DNA of 11,864 nucleotides from Bacteriovoracaceae bacterium (GCA_049599895.1 JBMYPC010000095.1:1-11864), one strand, 5' to 3'. Numbered from the stretch's first letter, positions 1 to 11,864 are shown. The notes: generated by a model not told the origin, from the letters alone. Numbers and translations are program-made.

Positions 1-183
1 TTGATTCCTGGTCCGTAAACTCCAGCATTGATTCCTGGTCCGTAAACTCCAGCATTGATTCCTGGTCCGTAAACTCCAGCATTGATTCCTGGTCCGTAAA
101 CTCCAGCGTTCGGTCCATAAATTCCAGCATTGACTCCCGGTCCATAAATTCCAGCATTGACTCCCGGTCCATAAATTCCAGCG
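1..183 (-). repeat. Coding tandem repeat block A, 27-bp units encoding G[IV]NAG[VI]YGP
   Basis: ttgattcctggtccgtaaactccagca at 1-27, 28-54, 55-81 and 82-108 (last base differs). A 21-bp unit follows at 109-129, then the variant ttgactcccggtccataaattccagc[ag] at 130-156 and 157-183. The block reaches the window edge. Confidence 0.95.
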
Positions 184-1244
184 TTCGGTCCATGAATTCC
201 GCCATGGATTACAGGTCCATGAATTCCGCCATGGATTCCCGGTCCATGAATTCCGCCATGGATTCCCGGTCCGTGAATTCCGCCATGGATTCCCGGTCCG
301 TGAATTCCGCCATGGATTCCCGGTCCATAGATACCACCATTAACTCCTGGCCCATGAATTCCACCGTGGATACCACCATGAACTCCTCCATGGACTCCAG
401 GTCCATAGATTCCAGCATTTGGTCCATAAACTCCGCCGTGTACTCCTGGTCCATGAATTCCAGGGCCGTAAATTCCACCGCCAACTCCAACACCTGGAAT
501 TCCTCCAAGTCCGTAGCCACCATAAGGACCACCAACTCCACCACCGTGAGGCCCATAAATTCCGCCTGCACCTGGAGCACCGATAATTCCGCCCATTCCA
601 GGTACGCCGCCGTAGCCTCCACCTGGTCCGTATCCATATCCACCACCAGCATATGGCCCCATCATTCCACCAAGGAATCCAGGACTGTATCCGGCACCTA
701 CATAAGGATTACCAACTCCGCCTCCATAGCCTCCGCCATAGAGCCCACCGTAACCGGCATAGTTCCCATAGCCGTAACCATTACAGTTGCCCATGAGATC
801 ATCTGCTTGTTCCGGAAGAATTGGAGCAGCTCCTCTTTCAAGAGAATAATTTAAATAAGAATCAAATCGATTTGTACAAGCCGTGTGTCCGTAGCGATAA
901 GCATCAGCCCACTCTTGTTGAGTTTTATGTTGATATCTTGAAGAAACATAAACAGAACCAAATAAAGCTAATGGCCCGGCCACAACTCCTAAAGCTTCAA
1001 CCCAAGGGTTTGGCTTATCTTCTTCATGAAAAAGACAATCGATACAATCAACACCAGCGTGTGATGACATATGAATTCGGTGACATGATCTATAGTCTTT
1101 TTCCCAACTCTTTACGTAACGACAAGGATCTTCATCATAACTATCCAGATAACTTGGATCGTCTGCTAATCCTAACTGCCCCCATGCACTCAGTGGTACA
1201 TGAAGTAGTAATAAAGAGAAAAAGATTAGTTTAAAATTCTGCAT
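1..1244 (-). CDS. Secreted/exported Gly-Tyr-His-Pro-rich repeat protein (3' end outside the window, at least 414 aa)
   Basis: Hand translation from ATG at 1244 stays open to the window edge: MQNFKLIFFSLLLLHVPLSAWG|QLGLADDPSYLDSYDEDPCRYVKSWEKDYRSCHRIHMSSHAGVDCIDCLFHEEDKPNPWVEALGVVAGPLALFGSVYVSS...GNCNGYGYGNYAGYGGLYGGGYGG...(GIHGGIHGP)n...(GINAGVYGP)n. A GGAG RBS lies 6 nt upstream. The N-terminus looks like a Sec signal peptide. All repeat unit lengths (27 and 21 bp) keep this frame. Confidence 0.9.
   Translation of the reverse strand, partial: MQNFKLIFFSLLLLHVPLSAWGQLGLADDPSYLDSYDEDPCRYVKSWEKDYRSCHRIHMSSHAGVDCIDCLFHEEDKPNPWVEALGVVAGPLALFGSVYVSSRYQHKTQQEWADAYRYGHTACTNRFDSYLNYSLERGAAPILPEQADDLMGNCNGYGYGNYAGYGGLYGGGYGGGVGNPYVGAGYSPGFLGGMMGPYAGGGYGYGPGGGYGGVPGMGGIIGAPGAGGIYGPHGGGVGGPYGGYGLGGIPGVGVGGGIYGPGIHGPGVHGGVYGPNAGIYGPGVHGGVHGGIHGGIHGPGVNGGIYGPGIHGGIHGPGIHGGIHGPGIHGGIHGPGIHGGIHGPVIHGGIHGPNAGIYGPGVNAGIYGPGVNAGIYGPNAGVYGPGINAGVYGPGINAGVYGPGINAGVYGPGI
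187..321 (-). repeat. Coding tandem repeat block B, 5 x 27 bp encoding GIHGGIHGP (one copy VIHGGIHGP)
   Basis: ggtcc[ag]tgaattccgccatggattccc at 187-213 (ends attaca), 214-240, 241-267, 268-294 and 295-321. Confidence 0.95.
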
Positions 1245-1346: not shown

Positions 1347-1385
1347 TTGACTTTTACCATAACCTATTATTTACAATAGGTTATG
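1347..1385 (+). promoter_or_regulatory. Candidate sigma70 promoter overlapped by a perfect inverted repeat (possible operator)
   Basis: TTGACT (1347-1352), a 19-bp spacer, then TACAAT (1372-1377). The inverted repeat CATAACCTATT-atttac-AATAGGTTATG spans 1358-1385 and ends on the ATG at 1383-1385. Confidence 0.5.
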
Positions 1386-1973
1386 AATAATTCGCACATC
1401 AATTTTTTTTCAGCTCAAACTTTTACTGACCATCCCATAAGTTGGCTAATACTCCTAGGTCTTATTCTAATACTAATTGCGATGACCCTCATCATAAAAA
1501 AAGAGGGGCAAAAAATAGACTACGAGCACGAAGTTTTTGAAATCGGAAACTTTCAAATCAAAGTTCCTCTCTGGTGGACCCAAAAGGAAGGTCCAAATAA
1601 ACAAAGCCTCTCCTTTTATCGATCCGACACAGCCTACGAATGGCTTGCGACTTATTACTGGTACCCCAAAAAAGACATTGAAAACTCAAGCGAAGAGTTT
1701 TTTAGAAATTTTATTTTAAATGAGAAACTCGAACTTGATGAAAGTGAAGCCATTATTGATGAGCTTCATTCAAAATCTAAAGAACATTACAAAGTGTTTC
1801 GAATCGAAGGAACAGCAACTCAGGCCAAGATTAAACGCTGCTATGTTGATTGCTTTATCATCGAAGATGAAAAGAATAATGAAGTTCTCATTGGCTATAG
1901 CTGGAGCTCAATCCTTAATGGACTCGTAGAGGGACCTTATTTTGAGAGAGTTCTAGAAACTTTGCTTGATTAG
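1383..1973 (+). CDS. Hypothetical single-pass membrane protein, soluble domain possibly PsbP/DcrB-like
   Basis: 196-aa ORF with an N-terminal TM helix (ISWLILLGLILILIAMTLII) followed by KK. The motif FQIKVPLWW and the later beta-strand pattern are reminiscent of the PsbP/Mog1/DcrB fold (inference). Confidence 0.75.
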   Translation: MNNSHINFFSAQTFTDHPISWLILLGLILILIAMTLIIKKEGQKIDYEHEVFEIGNFQIKVPLWWTQKEGPNKQSLSFYRSDTAYEWLATYYWYPKKDIENSSEEFFRNFILNEKLELDESEAIIDELHSKSKEHYKVFRIEGTATQAKIKRCYVDCFIIEDEKNNEVLIGYSWSSILNGLVEGPYFERVLETLLD

Positions 1974-2416
1974 TTTTTTCGAGGTGAAAAAGTTCTGATC
2001 TTTTGAACAAGAAATGAAGCGATCTCATCATCCGTTCCAAAAACATCATCAACAAGATCATTTTCTAAAAGAAACTGAGTCATTCTTAATGAAATCTGAT
2101 GAAGTGATTCAACAAGATAAAGTCCACCAATGTTTTCTCCACTAAAACCTTTGATGATTTCTTTTCTTGCGTGGTTGTACATTTCAGATTCTGTGACATC
2201 TTCAGGAAGATTGTCCGCACCCATCTTCTCTTCAACTTCTTCAATTGCTTGTTCTTTAATATCTTCGTCTGTAGCAAAGCAAACACCAAACTCAGTGGCC
2301 ATTGCTTCGATAAGTGCATCACGATTTGTTACGTGAAAATCAATCGTATTACTTTCTTTCAAGTAATTTATCGTAAAACTCGCTAGATCTTTCAACGTTT
2401 CGAAATCAGTCTTCAT
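1970..2416 (-). CDS. DUF507-family-like acidic helical protein
   Basis: 148-aa ORF with an AAAGG RBS upstream. The pattern (L..LA...I..LKE...I.F ... DEDI.E.A.EEVEE ... MY...RKEI) resembles DUF507 proteins as I recall them. It is co-oriented 50 bp downstream of murJ. Confidence 0.7.
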   Translation of the reverse strand: MKTDFETLKDLASFTINYLKESNTIDFHVTNRDALIEAMATEFGVCFATDEDIKEQAIEEVEEKMGADNLPEDVTESEMYNHARKEIIKGFSGENIGGLYLVESLHQISLRMTQFLLENDLVDDVFGTDDEIASFLVQKIRTFSPRKN

Positions 2417-2466: not shown

Positions 2467-3996
2467 CTACTTAGCCAAAACCTTTTTTAAAAAATTCCCC
2501 TCACCAAGGAGAAATAGAATACCCAAATAGCTTAATCCAGAAAGGAGTAAAATCATAACAAAAATTGCGGATTTCATTAAAAATATACTTGAATAATCAA
2601 TATATAGCTCACTAAGCCACCATGCAGCGATACCTGAAATTGAGGAGGAAATCATCATCTTTAACTGACGCCCCCCAATAACTGAGAGAAGGTCAAATCC
2701 TAAATCTTTTTTAAGCTTGAAAAACTGGATCCCTGCATTAATTAAAACCGACAAAGATGTTCCTAAAGGTAAAATCCAAAAACCGTAGAGAGGAGTTAAA
2801 ACCCAACAGAATAGAATATTAAAAATCACACAGCCAACTGAAGTCATGACCGGAAACTTGGGATTGTCTAATGTGTAAAAAGTTGGAGAGAAAATTTTAA
2901 AGAGCCCATAGGAAGGAAGCCCTAGAGCAAAGAACTTCAAAACCCATTGGGTTTGCTGAGTATCTTCTGCTGTAAAAGCTCCCCTCTCAAAAACTAAATG
3001 AACCATGGGCTCAGAAAGGCCAATAAGAAGGCCTGTGCAAAAAAGAAGAAGAAATAAGGAATAAGAAATAGAAGACTTAAAATAACCCATGGCCTCCTCT
3101 TTTCTCTGTCCTTTCCAAGCAGCAGAAAAATGCACAAGGTTTGAGTTTGCAAGAGAAACCCCAATAATCCCCACGGGAAATTGATAGAGCCTAAAAGCAT
3201 AGGTTAACCACGAAACCGCACCAACCACAGTTCCAGTTGCAAGATAAGTGTTCACAATAATATTGAGTTGATTGGTCGCAACTCCAATAGTTCCAATCCC
3301 CATTCTGCCTAGAATACTTTTTTGATTCTCATCCCAAAGCTTTAAACCCTTAACAGGCCCAAGCCTTTTTTTAAGCATAAGAGGAACTTGAAATAAAAAC
3401 TGAAAAGCTCCCCCCAAAAGAACTCCCCAAGCAAGAGCGAGAATAGGCTCCATACCTTTTGAAGCAAAATATTTTGAACCAAAGAGAATCGCACCAATCA
3501 TAGCGACATTAAAAGTTGCTGGTGCAAATGAAGGAATAAAAAAGGCCTTAAAAGTATTCAATGCTCCCATCACTAATGCCGCTAAACTAATCAGCATTAA
3601 AAACGGCGCCATAATTCGAACCAAAACAACAGTGAGTTCAAACTTCTCGCGATCCTTTGCATACTCAGCGTCTGTCATAAGCGCCACTAAATCTGAAGCA
3701 AAGTATTCAATTCCAAGAACGATGAAAAAAGTAATACCTGTTAACAGACAAAAGCTAGACCAGATAAGCTTGCGGGCTTCTCTTTGCACCGAATCATCCC
3801 CCTCTTCTTTAACTTTGGAGAGGATCGGAACAAAGGCTGCAGAAAAAGAGCCCTCTGCAAAGAGATCCCTCAACATGTTTGGTATTCGATAAGCAATTTG
3901 AAAGGCGTCCGTCACCCCACTGGCACCAAAGGTTGCCGCCATAGCAAGCTCTCGTATCAATCCAAGAACGCGTGACAGCATTGTAGCGACACCCAT
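2467..3996 (-). CDS. murJ: Lipid II flippase MurJ (MviN); true start may be CTG at 4032
   Basis: Hallmark motifs ATMLSRVLGLIRE, FGASGVTDAFQIAYRIPNMLRDLFAEGSFSAAFVP, SWLTYAFRLYQFPVG and LVFERGAF, with many TM segments. Confidence 0.96.
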   Translation of the reverse strand: MGVATMLSRVLGLIRELAMAATFGASGVTDAFQIAYRIPNMLRDLFAEGSFSAAFVPILSKVKEEGDDSVQREARKLIWSSFCLLTGITFFIVLGIEYFASDLVALMTDAEYAKDREKFELTVVLVRIMAPFLMLISLAALVMGALNTFKAFFIPSFAPATFNVAMIGAILFGSKYFASKGMEPILALAWGVLLGGAFQFLFQVPLMLKKRLGPVKGLKLWDENQKSILGRMGIGTIGVATNQLNIIVNTYLATGTVVGAVSWLTYAFRLYQFPVGIIGVSLANSNLVHFSAAWKGQRKEEAMGYFKSSISYSLFLLLFCTGLLIGLSEPMVHLVFERGAFTAEDTQQTQWVLKFFALGLPSYGLFKIFSPTFYTLDNPKFPVMTSVGCVIFNILFCWVLTPLYGFWILPLGTSLSVLINAGIQFFKLKKDLGFDLLSVIGGRQLKMMISSSISGIAAWWLSELYIDYSSIFLMKSAIFVMILLLSGLSYLGILFLLGEGNFLKKVLAK

Positions 3997-4208
3997 TTTA
4001 AAAGATGAAAATAAAATTTTATTTGATTTCAGAGACTCCCCTTTTCTTAACGCCTACGGTCTAAAACAAAAAACCGACTTTTCAAATAAAGCTTTTCAAT
4101 TTACGCTCACTATACATTGTGATAATTCAAAGAATCTCAAAAATTTAAACTCTTGAGTAGTCTTTTATTGGAATGTTGTCTTATGACAACGAAAAGGAGA
4201 AGTGGTTC

Positions 4209-6209
4209 ATGGAATCAGTTATGGGATTTGCAGGCTATAGTTGGATTATAGGCTGTCTAGGATTTGGGTTTGCGGTAGCAACTTATTATTGGGTTAAAAA
4301 TCAGCCAGCGGGTAATGCGAAGATGACAGGAATCGCAACACTCATTGAATCTGGTTCAATGACGTTCCTTAAAAAGGAATACACTATCCTCATCGGATTT
4401 TTGGCCATCGTTACAATTCTTCTAGGTGTAAAACTTGGAACGAATACAGCGGTTGCTTATGTAATCGGTGCCTTTACTTCTATGTTCTGCGGATACATGG
4501 GAATGAAAGCTGCAACTAAAGCGAACGTAAGAACAGCAGAAGCTGCAGCTCAAAGCGGACAGGGAAAAGCTCTCACTGTTGCTTTCTTTGGTGGATCAGT
4601 TATGGGGATGGTTGTTGCCTCTCTTGGTCTTGTTGGTGTTGCTCTTGTTTATAAATTTTTAACAGGAACATCTATTGAAGCCCTTAACGGTTTTGCAATG
4701 GGTGCTTCTTCAATTGCTCTTTTTGCTCGTGTTGGTGGTGGTATCTATACTAAAGCTGCTGACGTTGGTGCTGACCTTGTTGGTAAAGTTGAAGCAGGAA
4801 TTCCTGAAGACGATCCAAGAAACCCAGCAACAATTGCTGATAATGTTGGTGACAATGTTGGTGATACTGCTGGTATGGGTGCCGATATTTTCGAGTCTTA
4901 TTGTGGATCGGTTATCGCAACAATGTTTATTGGATCAAAGCTTGCTGAAAATACAACGGGAGCTATCACACTTCCAATTATCGTCATTGCCATTGGACTT
5001 ATCGCTTCTTTATTAGCGGTTCTTACAATGAACCTTTTAAAGAACTCAAACCCAGCAAACGCTTTAAGAATCACTCCTGTGATTGGCCTTCTTGGACTAT
5101 TCCTTGGTGCTTATTTTGTTGTTGATGCTCTTAATTTTACTGTTTTCCCACATAGAATGGGACCATTCATTGCTATGGTGATTGGATCACTTGTTGGTCT
5201 TTCAACTGGTTTTGCAACTGAGTACTTTACAGCTGGAGAATTCAGCCCAGTAAAGAAAGTTGCAAAAGCTGGTAAAACAGGTCCAGCGACAAACATTATT
5301 GCTGGTCTTGCTGTTGGTATGTATTCATGTATTCCACCAATCTTTTTAATTGCTCTTGGTATCTACTTCTCAAATATGTACGCAGGTCTTTACGGAATCG
5401 GTATTGCTGCTGTTGGTATGCTAGCAACAACTGGTGTAACAATGACTGTTGATGCTTACGGGCCAATCTCTGATAACGCTGGTGGTATCGCTGAAATGAG
5501 TGAACTAGGACCAGAAGTTAGAGCGATTACTGACGGACTTGATTCAATCGGAAACACAACTGCTGCTGTTGGAAAAGGTTTTGCGATTGGTTCAGCGGCA
5601 CTTACAGCACTTGCAATGTTCTCTGCATACGCTTCAGCTGTTGGACTTCAAACAATTAACATCATGACTCCTGAAGTTGTTATCGGGCTTTTCATTGGTG
5701 GAATGCTGCCATTCTATGTTGGTGCGAACACAATGGACTCAGTTGGATCTGCTGCTCAAAAAATGGTTGAGGAAGTAAGACGTCAATTTAGAGAAATTCC
5801 AGGAATCATGGAAGGAACAGGAAAGCCTGACACTGAAAGATGTGTTGAGATTGCAACCGCTGCTTCACTTAAAGAAATGATTCTGCCAGGTGTTGTCGCA
5901 ATTCTTTCACCACTTCTTGTAGGATTTATCCTTGGTAAAGAAGCTCTTGGTGGAATGCTTGCTGGTGCTACTGTGACAGGTGTTCTTCTTGCACTTTTCA
6001 TGGCAAACGCTGGTGGTGCTTGGGATAACGCTAAAAAAGCGATTGAACAAGGACACGTTGAAGGTGAATCTAAAGGTGGCGAAGCTCACAAAGCAGCCGT
6101 TACAGGTGATACTGTAGGTGACCCGTTCAAAGATACTTCAGGACCTGCGATGAACATTCTCGTTAAGCTTATGAGTATTGTGGCACTTGTTATAGCACCA
6201 CTACTTTAA
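4209..6209 (+). CDS. hppA: Membrane-bound pyrophosphatase, K+-dependent, probably Na+-translocating (666 aa from ATG 4209)
   Basis: Motifs [65 protein letters not shown] and [19 protein letters not shown] at 4195-4199 favours ATG 4209 over the track start at 4173. Confidence 0.97.
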
Positions 6210-6234
6210 TCAAATAAAAAATTGATTTGATATT

Positions 6235-6263
6235 AGGGGCTCTTTTTAGGGCCCCTTTTTTTT
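6235..6263 (+). terminator. Rho-independent terminator of hppA
   Basis: Stem AGGGGCTCT / AGGGCCCCT (one G-U pair) with a TTTT loop, followed by a T8 run, about 25 nt after the stop codon. Confidence 0.9.
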
Positions 6264-6441
6264 GATGTTTTTACTACAAGATCGAAGAATTGTAGTCAGT
6301 TTCTCAAGACAACAAAAATGGTACCTTAGACAAACTTAGAAAACCTAACCAAATTTTGATCAATTCTTTGCACTAATCCCCTATTAAGACCATGATATTA
6401 ATGAGATGATTTCCTCTCAATTCGTTGCCATTGGGGTCTAA

Positions 6442-7878
6442 ATGAAGTTTTCCTTGTCAATAATTGTTGTTTCGACTTTTATTCTTTCAACCACAGTAAA
6501 AGCATCCACTCTCATCGATCCTTTTCTCAACAATGTTCGCCTAAGTGCTCTCGAGGCTAAGATCATTGAAATTGATAAAAACTCTTCTCTTCTTAAAAAC
6601 ACTCTTGAACTTGCAAGCTTTGATATCGATACTGATATTAATGCGAGCTTTGAAAGAGATGACTCTGCTGCATTTAATATCAACTCTGCTTCTCGAAACG
6701 ATACCTACACCTTTGGAACATCCGTCTCCAAGTTATGGCGATCAGGATTTAAAACCCAATTTAATTACGAAGTAAAAGATCAGTATTTTGAATACCCGAC
6801 ATTTACAGACCTTAGTTATCTTTATCCAACGACAAGTATTAGTGTCACAACAAATGTTTTTCAGGATCTTTTTGGAAGGCGATATAAATATCAAGCTCAA
6901 AAGATTTCTCAGAATGAAAAGGTCATCGAACAAAATTCGAACAATCAACTCCGCTCATTACTTGCGACTGCTCTTTTAAGACTTGCAGAAGTTTTAGAGA
7001 TTCAAGATGACTTAAAACTTCAAAAAAGACTTTGTACTCAAGTTGAAAATCAAACCACACAACTTAAAGAAAAAAATAAAAGAGGTTCGATTCCCAAACG
7101 AGAATATCTCCTCAGTTTAAAAGAACAAAATACTTGTCAGGCAACTGTAAAAGCGGAAGAAAAAAAGCGACTTGAGAAAATTAATGCTTTTGAAGCAAAA
7201 TTCAACGTCAAAGTTGCTCCCTATCTTCTCGTCAACATTAAAGATGCTTTCATGGAGATCTCTTCGATCTACACCAAATACACTGGGCAAGCAAAAGAAG
7301 TCAGCTTCGATGACAACCCCGATATTAAAGAAATTTCTCAAAGAATTTCAGCAATGGAAAATAATGTTCAAGAACTCAGAACTCAGACAAAACTCGATAT
7401 TGACCTCACCTTAAAGGTTGGCTCAAGCGGAGTTGAAGATAACTTTGGAAAGGCTAATGAACAGGCCTTCAAAGGAGAAAATCCTTTTATCTATGCAGGT
7501 CTAACTCTGAACCTTCCAAGCACGAACCGAACAGAAAGAGTCAATCACACCTCTAAGCTCCTTGATCTCGAATCACTTAGAAAAAGAAAAGACCTTGCTT
7601 GGGCACAAAAGGTGTCTAGTTTTCAAACCCTCAAAGAAAGTCTTATGAAAGATTATGAGATCTATAAAGACTACGAAAGAAATGTTGCACTCTCTGAAAG
7701 TATTCTTAAAGAAGCCAGAAGAGACTTCAACAATGGACGAATTGATTTCTTTGCCTATATGGAGTTTCAAAAAGGTCTTATTCAAAGTCGACAAAGACTT
7801 GGAGAGCTACGAACACAGATTATTATCAACACAGTTGAATTTTTTGATTATTTTAATTTCTTTTCAAAATTTTACTAG
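6442..7878 (+). CDS. TolC-family outer membrane factor
   Basis: 478 aa with a signal peptide (…TTVKA|S). It has two OEP-type repeats of beta strands followed by long coiled helices, with turns KNKRGSIPKRE and DFNNGRIDFFAY, and lies 21 bp upstream of an RND permease. Confidence 0.85.
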   Translation: MKFSLSIIVVSTFILSTTVKASTLIDPFLNNVRLSALEAKIIEIDKNSSLLKNTLELASFDIDTDINASFERDDSAAFNINSASRNDTYTFGTSVSKLWRSGFKTQFNYEVKDQYFEYPTFTDLSYLYPTTSISVTTNVFQDLFGRRYKYQAQKISQNEKVIEQNSNNQLRSLLATALLRLAEVLEIQDDLKLQKRLCTQVENQTTQLKEKNKRGSIPKREYLLSLKEQNTCQATVKAEEKKRLEKINAFEAKFNVKVAPYLLVNIKDAFMEISSIYTKYTGQAKEVSFDDNPDIKEISQRISAMENNVQELRTQTKLDIDLTLKVGSSGVEDNFGKANEQAFKGENPFIYAGLTLNLPSTNRTERVNHTSKLLDLESLRKRKDLAWAQKVSSFQTLKESLMKDYEIYKDYERNVALSESILKEARRDFNNGRIDFFAYMEFQKGLIQSRQRLGELRTQIIINTVEFFDYFNFFSKFY

Positions 7879-7899
7879 ACTCAGCTAAGGCCAATCTTT

Positions 7900-10800
7900 A
7901 TGAGACTCTTTAGATTCTTTCTGAACCAAAAACTTTTTGTCCACTACATTACCATTGTGATTGTGATATTAGGTTTTATGACTCTCAATGTGATCCAACG
8001 AGAGGCAAGACCAAACGTCAATTTTAACCGTGTTGTCATTAGTGTCGGTTATCCAGGGGCGGCTCCTTCAGATATTGAAGAACTCGTGATTGACCCTATC
8101 GAAGAAAAAATCAATGAAGTTGATGGTATCGAAGAATATCGTTCTGTTTCCTATTCAGGAGCAGGGATTATTTCAATTGTCATTGATGAAGAACACCCAG
8201 ACCTTGATCAGGTTGTGGACGATATTAGAAGAAAAGTTGCCGAGGTCAATGATCTTCCTGATGAGGTGAATGATCCTTTTGTGTCAGAAATTAAAGCCGA
8301 GAATATTCCTGTCCTTAGACTTGCTCTTTATGGTGATGCCAAACCATTTGATCTGAAGATTGAAGTTGAGAAACTCAGAGACTACGTCAAAACTTTTGAT
8401 GGAGTTCAAAGTGTTAGTTACGCAGGCCTTGAGGACCTTCAACTCAAAGTTTTAACCAATCCCGATAAACTTAATACTTATGATGTCACTCTCATTGAAA
8501 TCATTTCAAGACTCAGAGAATGGGCAAAACAAAGGCCAGGTGGTCTTCTTGAGAATTCTACGAGTACTCATAACCTTACCGTAGGAAAAGACTATAACGA
8601 TATTGATGAGCTCCTCAACTTTACAGTGAGAAGTAATGACTCTGGAAAAAATGTTCAACTCAAAGATATCGCCGCTGTTGATTATGACACTCAAACAACT
8701 CAGAAAAGATCAATCTTTGGAGACAAAAGTGCAGTTCTTGTCACCATCGTCAAAAAAACCAATGCAGATGTTGTTAAAACAGTAGATGAAGTTCGTGCTG
8801 GACTAGAAGACTATCGTAAGAACTTAAAAAATGGACTCGACTTTAAGCTTTACACAGATGAATCAAAAAGAGTTCGTTCCCGCCTTAAGACTGTAACTTC
8901 AAATGCCCTTTCGGGACTTCTCCTAGTCATTATCATTCTTGTCCTCTTTCTCGATTGGAGATCAGCTGCGGTTGTTTCTCTAGGTCTTCCCGTTGCCGTG
9001 CTTGGTGGTATTGTGATGGTCTACCTTCTTGGCAACACTCTCAACTCCCTTGTGATTATTGGGATGATCATTGTTCTGGGAATGTTGGTCGATGATGCCA
9101 TTGTTGTCTGTGAAAACATATATGCCTATCTTGAAGAGGGACTCTCTCCATCTGAAGCAGCAATAAAAGGTGTCTCGCAAATCTCTGTTCCAGTTGTGGC
9201 CACTGTCTTGACAACGATCTTTGCTTTCTTTCCGATTCTCTTTATGAAAGAAATTATTGGCCAATTTTTAAGAGTGATCCCTGCAACAGTCATTGTGATG
9301 CTTGCCGTTTCCTTATTTGAGGCTCTTGTCATTCTTCCGATTCACGCTGAAGAAATCATGCGACCAAAACTCAAGAAGAAGAAAAAGATAGGCCCCTTTA
9401 AAAGAATCGAAGGAGTCTATCGCAAATACTTAGAATGGAGTTTAAAACATCGCTGGATTGTTTCAGGTATTCTTCTCATTTTCCTAGGGATTTCTGGTTA
9501 TCAAGGAAAACAACTTTTTCAAAAGTTTCGCCTTTTCCCTGCAACAGGACTTGATGGACTTTCAATTAGAGTCGAACTCAAGAAAAACTCTCCTATCGAA
9601 AAAACCTCAGATACCCTTAAGATGCTTGGTAAAGAACTCGAAGAGATATCGGAAGGAACATTTGACAGTATTTTCTCAACTGCCGGACAAGTCCTCACAG
9701 GAGGAAGCTCCGGAAGTCGACAAAATGCCTCTCACTTAGGCTCTGTGGATATTCGCTTCACCTCTGATCCAGACTTTATTCATAAAGAAAAAAGGATTGT
9801 TGGTCAGATAAGAAAAGTCTCAAAAGAATTTGCGAAGAAGTATAACGTCAAAACCAGTATCACAATCGATAGACCTGGCCCCCCTGTTGGTAAGCCAATT
9901 CAATATGAGATTACTTCTCGAAACTTCGACATAGGTAAAGAAGTTGTCTCTAAAATCATAAAAGAGTTTGAAAAGATCAATGGAGTTGAAAGCCTCGAGA
10001 CAGATCTTGATGGTGAAACAATCATGTACCGATTCCAAATTGATAATGCTCGAGCAGTCTCTGAAGGTGTCGACCCTGTTAATATCTCAAGAACGATCTT
10101 TTCGGCTTCCACAGGAGTAATTACGAATGAGATTCTGAAAAGCAATGAACGAGTTGAAATTCTCGTCGGAGTCGATTCAGAATCAGAAATGAAAGCAAAA
10201 GATATTCTCAATCTAAGAATTCGAAATAAGTTCTCACAGGCTGTTCCCCTTGCTTCTTTTGTCGAGCTTGTAGAAGAAACAAGTCCAAGCTCAATTCAAA
10301 GACTCAACGGCATTCGAACGATTACCTTATTTGGTGAAGTAAGAGAAAAGGAAATTACCGGAAAAGAGGCCAATGCTCAAGTTCGCCCTTTTATTGAAAA
10401 ACTCAAAAAAGAATATCCTACAATAAAAATCTCTACTGGCGGTGGTGAAAAAGATAGAATGAAGGCCCTTAAAGATACGATGAGACTTTATATTCTTGCG
10501 ATCTTTTTAATCTTTATGGTGATCAGTCTTTCTTTTCAATCAGTGGTCTACCCATTTTTAGTTTTACTCGCAATTCCTCTCGGACTTTGCGGTGTTGTTT
10601 GGTCACTTTCATTACATGGACAGCCTCTCTCACTTATGGGAATTATCGGTGTTGTTGGACTCTCTGGAGTTGTCGTAAACGTCTCGATTATTCTTTTAAG
10701 TTTTATTCGAGAGAAAATTCGCTCAGGTCTTAGTAAAGAAGAGGCCATTATTCAAGCTGGGCTCAGAAGGCTAAGACCAATTGTCATTACAACGATTACC

Positions 10801-10971
10801 ACATTGATTGGACTTATTCCGACGATCTATGGAATCGGTGGGGTTGATACCTTCGTTCAACCACTGGCCCTTGTTCTTGGTTGGGGACTATTTGTGGCAA
10901 CAGGATTATCAATATTTGCACTTCCGGCTTTAGTGTCGTTGGTACCAAAGCTTGAAAAGATGTCAAAATAG
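7900..10971 (+). CDS. RND efflux transporter permease subunit (AcrB/AcrD/AcrF-like)
   Basis: 1023 aa with motifs YPGAAPSDIEELVIDPIEE, GMLVDDAIVVCENI, RLRPIVITT and SIQRLNGIRTITL, and two large periplasmic loops. Confidence 0.96.
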   Translation: MRLFRFFLNQKLFVHYITIVIVILGFMTLNVIQREARPNVNFNRVVISVGYPGAAPSDIEELVIDPIEEKINEVDGIEEYRSVSYSGAGIISIVIDEEHPDLDQVVDDIRRKVAEVNDLPDEVNDPFVSEIKAENIPVLRLALYGDAKPFDLKIEVEKLRDYVKTFDGVQSVSYAGLEDLQLKVLTNPDKLNTYDVTLIEIISRLREWAKQRPGGLLENSTSTHNLTVGKDYNDIDELLNFTVRSNDSGKNVQLKDIAAVDYDTQTTQKRSIFGDKSAVLVTIVKKTNADVVKTVDEVRAGLEDYRKNLKNGLDFKLYTDESKRVRSRLKTVTSNALSGLLLVIIILVLFLDWRSAAVVSLGLPVAVLGGIVMVYLLGNTLNSLVIIGMIIVLGMLVDDAIVVCENIYAYLEEGLSPSEAAIKGVSQISVPVVATVLTTIFAFFPILFMKEIIGQFLRVIPATVIVMLAVSLFEALVILPIHAEEIMRPKLKKKKKIGPFKRIEGVYRKYLEWSLKHRWIVSGILLIFLGISGYQGKQLFQKFRLFPATGLDGLSIRVELKKNSPIEKTSDTLKMLGKELEEISEGTFDSIFSTAGQVLTGGSSGSRQNASHLGSVDIRFTSDPDFIHKEKRIVGQIRKVSKEFAKKYNVKTSITIDRPGPPVGKPIQYEITSRNFDIGKEVVSKIIKEFEKINGVESLETDLDGETIMYRFQIDNARAVSEGVDPVNISRTIFSASTGVITNEILKSNERVEILVGVDSESEMKAKDILNLRIRNKFSQAVPLASFVELVEETSPSSIQRLNGIRTITLFGEVREKEITGKEANAQVRPFIEKLKKEYPTIKISTGGGEKDRMKALKDTMRLYILAIFLIFMVISLSFQSVVYPFLVLLAIPLGLCGVVWSLSLHGQPLSLMGIIGVVGLSGVVVNVSIILLSFIREKIRSGLSKEEAIIQAGLRRLRPIVITTITTLIGLIPTIYGIGGVDTFVQPLALVLGWGLFVATGLSIFALPALVSLVPKLEKMSK

Positions 10972-11040: not shown

Positions 11041-11310
11041 ATGACATACATAGTCATGAGAACGAAGAAGTCAAAAATCCTTAAATCAACGTTTGCAATC
11101 TCAATTGCTATTAATGCCGCACTGATTGTTTTTCTTTTTCAAATCTCAAACCCCGTCTCATTAAAAACAGCGATTAATTTTTCGAAGGTCAATTATATCA
11201 ACGCCTGCGTAACGGCTTCAAAGGAATTAAGTCCAGAGAGAAGCTGGAGAAGTCATTGCTTGAATAAAGGGAATCAGTTTTTTTCTGATATTGAGCAGAT
11301 CTTTAGATAG
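11041..11310 (+). CDS. Small hypothetical membrane-anchored protein (start may be ATG 11056)
   Basis: 89 aa: a basic N-region (RTKKSKILK), one hydrophobic helix (FAISIAINAALIVFLF) and a Cys pair C-x16-C. It fills the gap between the RND gene and argB. Confidence 0.65.
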   Translation: MTYIVMRTKKSKILKSTFAISIAINAALIVFLFQISNPVSLKTAINFSKVNYINACVTASKELSPERSWRSHCLNKGNQFFSDIEQIFR

Positions 11311-11864
11311 TAAACCGAGTTCCCCTCACACGACCTTGAATAAACTCAGTCAAAGTATTTTCACGCCGACCATCAAGAAGAGAAATATTATCAACACCAT
11401 TTTTAAGCGCCTTAAAAATCGAAAGACATTTAACGAACATACCACCAACGATCACTTCTTTCTTTGAAAGCTCTTTAAAGCTCTCTTCAGTTAAATCCTT
11501 AATAAGCTCTTTTCGATGATCAAGAACACCTATTTGATCACTGAGAAAAATAAGATTTTTTGCTCCTAGCTCTCGAGAAACTCCCATGGCTGCATAATCG
11601 GCATTAATGTTAAGAGGGAGTCCATCATCTGAGGTTCCAACAGGACAAAGAATACAAAGAGATGAAGATGAAGCCTGAAAGTTCTTAAGATTAAGAGACT
11701 CCACTTCACCCACCTCACCTAAGGAAGAACTTAACCGTTTTCCATTTAAAATCTTATGCTCAAAACCACAGAGCCGCTTAGGGCCTAAACCTTCATTCTC
11801 TAGAAACTTTGAAATTTTTTGATTAGCTCTTTTCCACAAAGCATTATGTAAATGAGGCATCATC
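11303..11864 (-). CDS. argB: Acetylglutamate kinase, C-terminal part (5' end outside the window)
   Basis: Amino-acid kinase family motifs of the NAGK type: LGEVGEV, LNINADYAA, LIFLSDQIGVLD, GGMFVK, LDGR and GTRF. The frame is open to the right edge. Confidence 0.85.
   Translation of the reverse strand, partial: MMPHLHNALWKRANQKISKFLENEGLGPKRLCGFEHKILNGKRLSSSLGEVGEVESLNLKNFQASSSSLCILCPVGTSDDGLPLNINADYAAMGVSRELGAKNLIFLSDQIGVLDHRKELIKDLTEESFKELSKKEVIVGGMFVKCLSIFKALKNGVDNISLLDGRRENTLTEFIQGRVRGTRFTI

Follow-up and report, generated by a model that had tools for sequence, protein, structure and literature searches.

A phylum-wide family of predicted exported proteins with glycine-rich spacers, likely essential for predation, in Bacteriovoracaceae and related bacteria

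An unannotated gene at a contig end

We analyzed an 11,864-nucleotide (nt) stretch of DNA from a Bacteriovoracaceae bacterium (GCA_049599895.1, JBMYPC010000095.1:1-11864; hereafter, the window), the left end of which carries a minus-strand open reading frame (ORF) that runs from an ATG at 1244 to position 3 and is still open at the contig end (Table 1). Its 414-amino-acid (aa), glycine-rich product belongs to an undescribed, phylum-wide family of predicted exported proteins that is likely essential for predation. A sequence-only reading of the window had proposed an unannotated, secreted, silk- or suckerin-like protein here, and its description of the gene itself was borne out. The last charged residue (D, E, K or R) is residue 149, so that residues 150-414 (265 aa) are free of charge; they comprise G113 P27 I27 Y26 V18 H17 N13 A13 L4 M4 C1 S1 F1 (43% Gly) and contain every motif that had been named (GGLY once, GGY four times, YGPG ten times and IPGVGVG once, with GPG 15 times). 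This uncharged run is the longest among 2405 ORFs of at least 150 aa in the genome (runner-up, 114). When the N-terminal part was compared with 79 homologues over 12,096 aligned codons, differences at the three codon positions were 0.41, 0.33 and 0.60, and because third positions change the most, ORF 1244->3 is the coding frame and the gene is real. Its absence from the ORF track is explained by its running off the contig. Other proteins with short Gly-rich stretches occur in the host genome (C26, C23, C66, C156 and C162), none of them alike in length or charge pattern.

The host assembly comprises 3.27 Mb in 266 contigs, and the 3' end of the gene, with its C-terminal module, was found on no other contig of it; sequencing reads, assembled over 470-2400, did not recover it either. 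In the next syntenic contig (C168), the first bases already belong to the 3' part of uvrC, which usually follows the gene downstream, and this places the end of the gene in an assembly gap. A 27-base-pair (bp) unit is repeated in about 16 copies at 1-419, with synonymous variation between units; copy number at 1-297 rests on the assembly, as the contig of the candidate run stops near 297 inside the repeat and a second run spans only 470-642 of the gene.

Export is predicted from a crude Sec signal-peptide rule, which is passed by the window protein and 78 of 79 homologues versus 4 of 273 cytoplasmic neighbours, in agreement with the signal peptide proposed earlier. No lipobox was found in the window protein or in any of the 79 homologues. 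The folded-looking domain of about 130 aa that had been described fared less well: a model of aa 37-198 is of low confidence (predicted local distance difference test (pLDDT) 57.5; predicted template modelling score (pTM) 0.27) and consists mostly of one long helix of 57 residues (aa 80-136), followed by a short return helix that ends at C154, and the conserved sequence continues into the charge-free stretch. The long helix opens with the most hydrophobic part of the protein, the best 19-aa Kyte-Doolittle window scoring 1.69 (the median is 1.36 over 80 family members and 0.94 and 1.27 for two distant groups). Within the charge-free stretch, aa 155-198 hold 7 of the 11 invariant columns, and conservation across the family is highest there. 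Foldseek searches against the PDB gave no standout match (E>8) and the best hit of a wide structural search (Z 6.3) was to generic helices, which is not evidence for a new fold.

Table 1 Predicted features of the window
Feature	Position	Strand	Basis or remark
Gene for Gly-rich, predicted exported protein	3..1244	-	414 aa; truncated by contig end, C-terminal module absent from assembly
Predicted Sec signal peptide, aa 1-22	1179..1244	-	Sequence and heuristic (78/79 homologues)
Cys-containing N-terminal segment, aa 23-77 (C41, C54, invariant CxxC C67/C70)	1014..1178	-	Alignments A1, A2; CxxC invariant in A2, A4, A5, A6
Hydrophobic helix, aa 80-103 (predicted to insert into a membrane or to form an oligomer core)	936..1007	-	Hydropathy and model
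Amphipathic helix plus hairpin, aa 104-154 (C123 and C154 invariant, disulfide predicted)	783..935	-	Alignment and model
Conserved Gly/aromatic motif, aa 155-198 (invariant G164, G185, Y186, G189, F190, G193, M194)	651..782	-	Alignment
Variable uncharged Gly-rich spacer, aa 199-414	3..650	-	Ends in 9-residue His- and Asn/Tyr-containing GPG repeats, peculiar to this genome
Predicted sigma28 (FliA)-type attack-phase promoter, TAAAG-N16-CCGTAA	1284..1314	-	39 nt ahead of ATG; matrix from 55 homologue sites
Gene for 196-aa protein with N-terminal membrane anchor	1383-1973	+	No Pfam match; in 66/80 loci
Gene for 148-aa acidic protein	1970-2416	-	No Pfam match; in 70/80 loci
murJ, membrane H+-pyrophosphatase (hppA), TolC-like protein, AcrB-family transporter	2467-10971		TolC and AcrB genes adjacent
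Amino-acid kinase family ORF	11303-11863	-	Right contig end, probably cut

A family conserved in Bacteriovoracaceae

With the N-terminal part as query, a search of 1.84 billion proteins recovered 71 representatives, of which P0066 is spurious, and a search of species genomes gave 98 matching loci, of which 80 were kept. The homologues carry Gly-rich tails and their records are titled, with few exceptions, Bacteriovoracaceae, Halobacteriovorax or Bacteriovorax, in keeping with the predatory host that the earlier reading had considered. Two records are titled Flavobacteriales and Sulfitobacter (L041 and L060); their gene neighbours are of the Bacteriovoracaceae type and the titles are likely wrong. 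A profile built from the 80 sequences (A2) matched 71 of 74 Bacteriovoracaceae genomes and 1 of 226 other genomes, and a wider profile (A4) recovered two of the three that A2 had missed, bringing the total to 73 of 74 genomes, mostly with a single copy.

Complete members share one order of parts: signal peptide, CxxC, hydrophobic helix, an amphipathic helix closed by two invariant cysteines, the Gly/aromatic motif and a variable spacer; a Trp/Gly anchor follows, and after it come a Gln-rich helix and a final strand. Shorter second copies (230-360 aa) found elsewhere keep the N-terminal core and are missing the bulk of the spacer and the Gln-rich helix (L016, L027, L046, L219; P0018, P0022, P0023, P0056, P0061). 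Assemblies often break inside the gene (13 of 80 loci, plus many low-coordinate matches in genome searches), which is likely why the family has stayed unannotated.

No Pfam match was obtained for the window protein, the 80 aligned N-terminal domains or full-length homologues, all hits being sub-threshold; NCBIfam and the ESM Atlas gave no match for the family, a PDB sequence search gave none (best E 0.13), and none was found in phages or plasmids. The N-terminal part thus maps to no characterised family in Pfam, NCBIfam or PDB sequences. Literature searches on glycine-rich Halobacteriovorax/Bdellovibrio proteins, Bd3302-Bd3307 and Bd0567/Bd3304 reached no paper that names the gene in its main text. 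On these grounds we consider the family undescribed.

Composition of the glycine-rich spacer

In 61 homologues, the spacer is 70-374 aa long and contains 49% Gly, 8% Tyr, 7% Met, 6% Ile and 6% Pro, with no charged residue at all in 48. GGY is common (50/61), and the other motifs are found in a minority: GGLY in 16, YGPG in 18, [VI]PG[VI]G in 7, His in 10 and GGIH in 2, so that the median frequency of GGLY, YGPG, [VI]PG[VI]G and His is zero. The window spacer, by comparison, has 7.9% His (median 0 in homologues) and 6.9 GPG per 100 aa (median 0.33), whereas its combined Gly+Pro content of 0.53 (Gly 0.43, Pro 0.10) is close to the 0.555 pooled over the 61 homologues. Selection appears to keep the composition of the spacer rather than any motif, and the likenesses to silk, suckerin and elastin on which the sequence-only reading had been built would accordingly be by-products of a Gly/Tyr/Pro alphabet.

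We compared the family with several well-known systems. Spidroins (MaSp2 and flagelliform) and elastin have helical ends around a repetitive Gly/Pro core, with conserved terminal domains in the spidroins, and elastomeric Gly/Pro proteins in general are high in combined Gly+Pro, disordered and self-associating. The three-block layout is alike and the window carries GPGxx repeats; unlike in spidroins, there is no poly-Ala, and no spidroin Pfam match was obtained for the window protein, the 80 N-terminal domains or full-length homologues. Mycobacterial PE_PGRS proteins likewise have a conserved helical N-terminal domain, the PE domain, ahead of a long, variable Gly-rich region with Gly-x-x triplets. 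A relationship to PE_PGRS, or a polyglycine II structure, is not supported: there is no PE match in Pfam, the signal peptide is of Sec type, and the longest Gly-x-x run counts 7 triplets in the window, while over 58 homologues its median is 5 and its maximum 36. Suckerins consist of P[M1]P[M2] repeats, in which M1 is an 11-residue Ala/Val/Thr/Ser/His beta-sheet module and M2 is rich in Gly/Tyr/Leu with GGY, GGLY and GYG (PMC11931252). The likeness to M2 exists (GGY four times and GGLY once in the window) and is not diagnostic, since such motifs are expected at 49% Gly and 8% Tyr. M1 was not found: P[AVTSH]{8,}P or poly-Ala occurs in 0/58 homologue spacers and the window has no poly-Ala and no A/V/T/S/H run of six or more. 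In the histidine-rich beak proteins of squid, coacervation is described as driven by tandem GHGXY pentapeptides; the window instead repeats GGIH/HGPG 9-mers. Squid suckerins and beak proteins resemble the family in high Gly/Tyr/His, with His-Gly repeats in this single genome, and differ from it in that the family spacer is flanked by conserved helical, Cys-containing domains and its His is not conserved.

On this evidence it is improbable that the protein is a free fibre, glue or coat that assembles by itself, serves attachment to surfaces or prey and has converged on silk or suckerin. The Gly and Pro content, the three-block layout with helical ends and the resemblance of the His/Gly repeats to coacervating beak motifs speak for it, whereas the motifs are not conserved and the M1 and poly-Ala blocks are lacking; phenotypic data given below add to the case against it.

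Relatives across the phylum and the link to Bd3304

The sole A2 match outside Bacteriovoracaceae (G297) has a long motif in common with the family. From it we reached a second group and, from there, complete genomes belonging to a third; the G297 core, used as query in a protein search, gave no match. Profile A5 found members in 38 of 38 genomes of the Bdellovibrio family and 16 of 20 of another, and a one-protein query in a larger sample found them in 74 of 81 genomes. Profile A6 found members in 24/40, 10/12, 6/6 and 4/6 genomes of four further families. The union of profiles covers about 190 of 300 genomes (a hand count), and the full architecture was read in about 60 loci outside Bacteriovoracaceae. 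None of the three profiles matched in families f3 (0/5), f4 (0/14), f6 (0/29), f11 (0/13), f16 (0/3), f20 (0/2) or f28 (0/7), and one weak match in f7 had no Gly-rich ORF, nor did a second match in G241.

All groups share a plan of signal peptide, CxxC, conserved hydrophobic helix, variable uncharged Gly-rich spacer and Gln-rich helix. Profile-profile comparison gave a probability of 91% between Bacteriovoracaceae and the intermediate groups (A2-A6) and of 98.7% between the intermediates and the Bdellovibrio family (A5-A6). Among the latter, the homologue at L152:4198-6348 is flanked by proteins identical to annotated B. bacteriovorus proteins and is, by its coordinates, Bd3304 (UniProt Q6MI66), with Bd0567 as paralogue. 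Bd3304 and Bd0567 resemble the window family in signal peptide, CxxC, hydrophobic helix, uncharged Gly-rich spacer, Gln-rich helix, sigma28-type promoter and a nearby fliA. In Bd3304, a charged coiled coil extends the N-terminus by 220 aa, the repeats are rich in Met and the last residue is Arg; the window family has a short N-terminus and usually an aromatic last residue. Homology of the window family to Bd3304 by way of the intermediates is very probable, and a shared function is probable.

One doubt about this link is that the Bacteriovoracaceae family might be a mere look-alike of Bd3304, with a phenotype that does not transfer. The long motif common to the intermediates and the window family argues against it, as do the domain order, promoter type and fliA linkage that the window family and Bd3304 share. 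Together with a role late in the predatory cycle, taken up below, we consider this the most doubtful of the explanations.

A predicted promoter, and flagellar genes

When upstream regions were searched without bias, the motif TAAA-N17-CCGA emerged, which lies upstream of 55 of 79 homologues, on the opposite strand of none (0/79) and in none of 11 of the 13 neighbouring gene groups. In the window, the site at 1314-1284 ranks 16 of 2294 ORF upstream regions (top 0.7%), two places under a gene that, from its sequence, we take to be flagellin-like. The motif fits the published attack-phase consensus of FliA, TTAAG-N16-CCGATA (PMC3627812), and we infer that sigma28 drives the gene from this predicted site. 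A variant, TCAAG-N16-ACGA, precedes 20 of 36 Bdellovibrio-family genes (0 antisense). No enrichment of a sigma54 motif was found upstream of the homologues, and Bd3304 is not in the published table of mapped promoters (PMC3627812). The FliA dyad was also seen upstream of the two remaining neighbouring gene groups, a 70-aa two-CxxC protein (L060:11589-11798 cluster; 7/38 loci) and a 215-aa lipoprotein-like protein (L020:15241-15885 cluster; 8/26 loci).

At most 50 kb separate the gene from fliA in 8 of 9 Bacteriovoracaceae genomes and, for two other families, in 6 of 6 genomes; G267, G118 and G216 show no linkage to fliA, and three genomes could not be judged. Three genomes of genus g46 (G123, G185 and G307; 94-99% complete) have neither flagellin, nor FlgE/F/G, nor a full FliF, and all three keep the gene, with an intact fliA 13-15 kb from it (G123:C22, G185:C15, G307:C14). 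It is also kept in G118, G176, G227 and G242, which lack flagellin (flagellin alone was checked); G118 and G242 have fliA. Because aflagellate genomes retain the gene, its product is not a flagellar part, and a structural or sheath component of the flagellum was ruled out. The pattern fits sigma28 as an attack-phase regulator that has outlived the flagellum.

Published data on Bd3304

In the sources consulted, Bd3304 was found only as rows of supplementary tables; it is not in the main text of the transposon-sequencing (Tn-seq), Tad or MIDAS papers, nor in the polar-hub supplements, and Bd0567 is absent under that name from the proteome and Tn-seq tables. In RNA sequencing, Bd3304 reaches 322 reads per kilobase per million (RPKM) in attack phase versus 27 in growth phase, about 12-fold (PMC3627812), and on prey entry its transcript falls to 0.63- and 0.59-fold (PMC2797640). 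The protein, identified by 18 unique peptides, has a level of 6.61 during attack phase and of 6.71, 6.29 and 6.83 after 1, 4 and 7 h, respectively, far under the major porin on the table's scale (6.6 versus 10.6) (PMC12546842), a low abundance for a fibre or glue. Attack-phase expression also disfavours the cyst coat that the sequence-only reading had offered.

In the Tn-seq tables (PMC6561027), the predation fitness of Bd3304 insertions is 0.0036, 0.060, 0.036 and 0.083 on four prey states and 0.001-0.010 in a repeat screen. Fitness is 1.4-1.9 for the upstream neighbours and 0.17-0.65 for a downstream hydrolase, so that polarity alone does not account for the Bd3304 value. The attachment score of the mutant is 0.72+-0.11 (control 0.97, defect <0.5), compared with 0.19 for tadC, and this disfavours a prey-attachment glue. 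Its rounding score is 0.89+-0.65, a noisy value (control 1.2, defect <0.4). Bd3304 was not among the 11 genes followed up in that study. The same table carries the RAST label 'PE family protein' and a Phyre note reading 'colicin Ia' for Bd3304 (PMC6561027). These data point to Bd3304, the likely counterpart of the window protein, as needed for predation with attachment spared.

Two of the competing explanations bear directly on these values. A late role, in bdelloplast growth, progeny maturation or exit, would fit a mutant that is attachment-positive, rounding-positive and of zero fitness, the pattern of the authors' class IV (exit), and a protein that rises at 5-7 h; the transcript, however, is attack-phase specific and drops on entry, and the late role shares the low standing already given to the look-alike. 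A membrane-breaching protein or translocator, in which a coiled coil and the hydrophobic helix open the prey membrane and the spacer serves as the kind of flexible linker found in the translocation regions of colicins, is unlikely. The hydrophobic helix after CxxC is conserved in all groups, residues 181-285 of Bd3304 have a sub-threshold NCBIfam match to alpha-xenorhabdolysin A (26.9 bits versus a cut-off of 125), and the Phyre note points the same way. These matches, however, fall on a generic coiled coil that the Bacteriovoracaceae proteins lack, the structural searches returned nothing outstanding, there is a single hydrophobic helix, and the Bd3304 mutant still scores as rounding prey.

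Neighbouring genes

Across the 80 loci, the 148-aa and 196-aa neighbours are the most often conserved (Table 1), followed by murJ in 57 and uvrC in 56. The family gene is usually monocistronic, with one neighbour oriented divergently and the other convergently. At 1358-1385, two perfectly matching 11-bp arms of an inverted repeat enclose a 6-nt loop; the repeat overlaps the beginning of the divergently oriented gene for the 196-aa protein, lies about 45 nt upstream from the predicted promoter and is a possible regulator site. In the window, the TolC and AcrB genes adjoin without a membrane-fusion gene between them.

Discussion

The interpretation offered by the sequence-only reading is partly supported: the gene encodes no relative of silk or suckerin but a member of an undescribed, phylum-wide and likely predation-essential family of predicted exported proteins. 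Since hunting cells make Bd3304, the likely counterpart, and predation requires it, we tentatively favour a preloaded, membrane-anchored, flexible and stretchy tether or seal at the predator-prey junction that would act after attachment, with doubt still slightly outweighing confidence. Sigma28 would switch the gene on in attack phase, and Sec would export the product into the envelope of the hunting cell, where disulfides would fix the N-terminal helices. The hydrophobic helix may insert into a membrane, either the predator's own or the outer membrane of the prey, while the N-terminal and Gln-rich helices may link copies together. The uncharged Gly/Tyr/Met/Pro spacer would stay disordered and cohesive and form an elastic layer for which the exact sequence is immaterial. 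Cryo-tomography has described a dense plaque without structure, a proteinaceous collar that is flexible, a rose-like complex and, on attack cells, thin 3-4 nm fimbriae, none of them assigned to proteins (bioRxiv 2022.06.13.496000). Most speculatively, the protein might be a component of the attachment plaque or of the flexible entry collar; the fimbriae, being of unassigned make-up, are a point in favour of a fibre.

Another parallel is the Bdellovibrio MIDAS adhesin Bd0875, an invasion-junction protein and likewise a predation factor that acts after first contact. Unlike the window family, which would be preloaded, has no lipobox and is half low-complexity, Bd0875 is induced at invasion and, being a lipoprotein, carries a MIDAS domain that is folded.

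A scaffold of the predator's own envelope, in the periplasm or on the inner face of the outer membrane, for instance as part of the rose-like complex or of a deformation layer, would never touch the prey; we regard it as possible and rather unlikely. Bd3304 is steady in level before prey contact and remade with the progeny at 5-7 h, and it is dispensable for prey-free growth, because insertions were recovered. The sigma28-type promoter and the monocistronic, conserved locus also suit such a scaffold, and the rose-like complex is without an assigned protein. Against it, a scaffold leaves the rapid, lineage-specific turnover of the spacer and of the N-terminal extensions unexplained, and in the form of a flagellar part it conflicts with the retention of the gene in aflagellate genomes.

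Several observations weigh against the tether or seal that we favour. The direct comparison of the Bacteriovoracaceae and Bdellovibrio-family profiles reaches 70% over 38 columns, and when the host genome is searched with A5 and A6, neither profile finds the window protein (best hits E>0.2), both of which also favour a look-alike; the C-terminal modules of the two families align at 7-14% probability. The C-termini differ as well, with Arg in 25 of 25 complete Bdellovibrio-family proteins checked (from the set L152, L175-L211) and an aromatic residue (F/W/Y) after a single C-terminal strand in 39 of 62 Bacteriovoracaceae proteins versus 111 of 905 controls, a count that leaves out 18 of the 80 loci (13 cut and 5 with N gaps inside the gene) and concerns a region missing from the window's assembly. 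These ends are possibly two distinct sorting or processing signals. Outer-membrane beta-barrels (BAM substrates) carry an aromatic C-terminal beta-signal on the last of many barrel strands; the aromatic ends seen here are enriched over controls, sit on one strand only and have no counterpart in the Bdellovibrio family. The window's own promoter site departs from the consensus, and in other groups, paralogues and genus g46 the motif occurs in 0/25 under strict matching (3 relaxed versus 4 antisense). Bd3304 protein is not induced at invasion, unlike Bd0875 (PMC12546842). The Tn-seq table lists it as 'No Signal Sequence', contrary to the N-terminus as we read it; the data come from a pooled screen in a host-independent background; the downstream hydrolase has a mild defect of its own; and the rounding value is noisy (PMC6561027). 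As about two thirds of the tested mutants clear the attachment cut, the stage at which Bd3304 acts is weakly defined.

How Bdellovibrio-like predators cross and reseal the prey outer membrane is a stated question of the field, for which the family offers a named candidate gene. An unannotated marine gene is hereby tied to a phylum-wide family and to Bd3304, a strong predation-essential hit in a 2019 supplement, in a laboratory predator that is harmless and genetically tractable. With several hundred Gly-rich spacers alike in composition and not in sequence, the family is in addition a natural library that is useful for asking what makes proteins elastic or cohesive.

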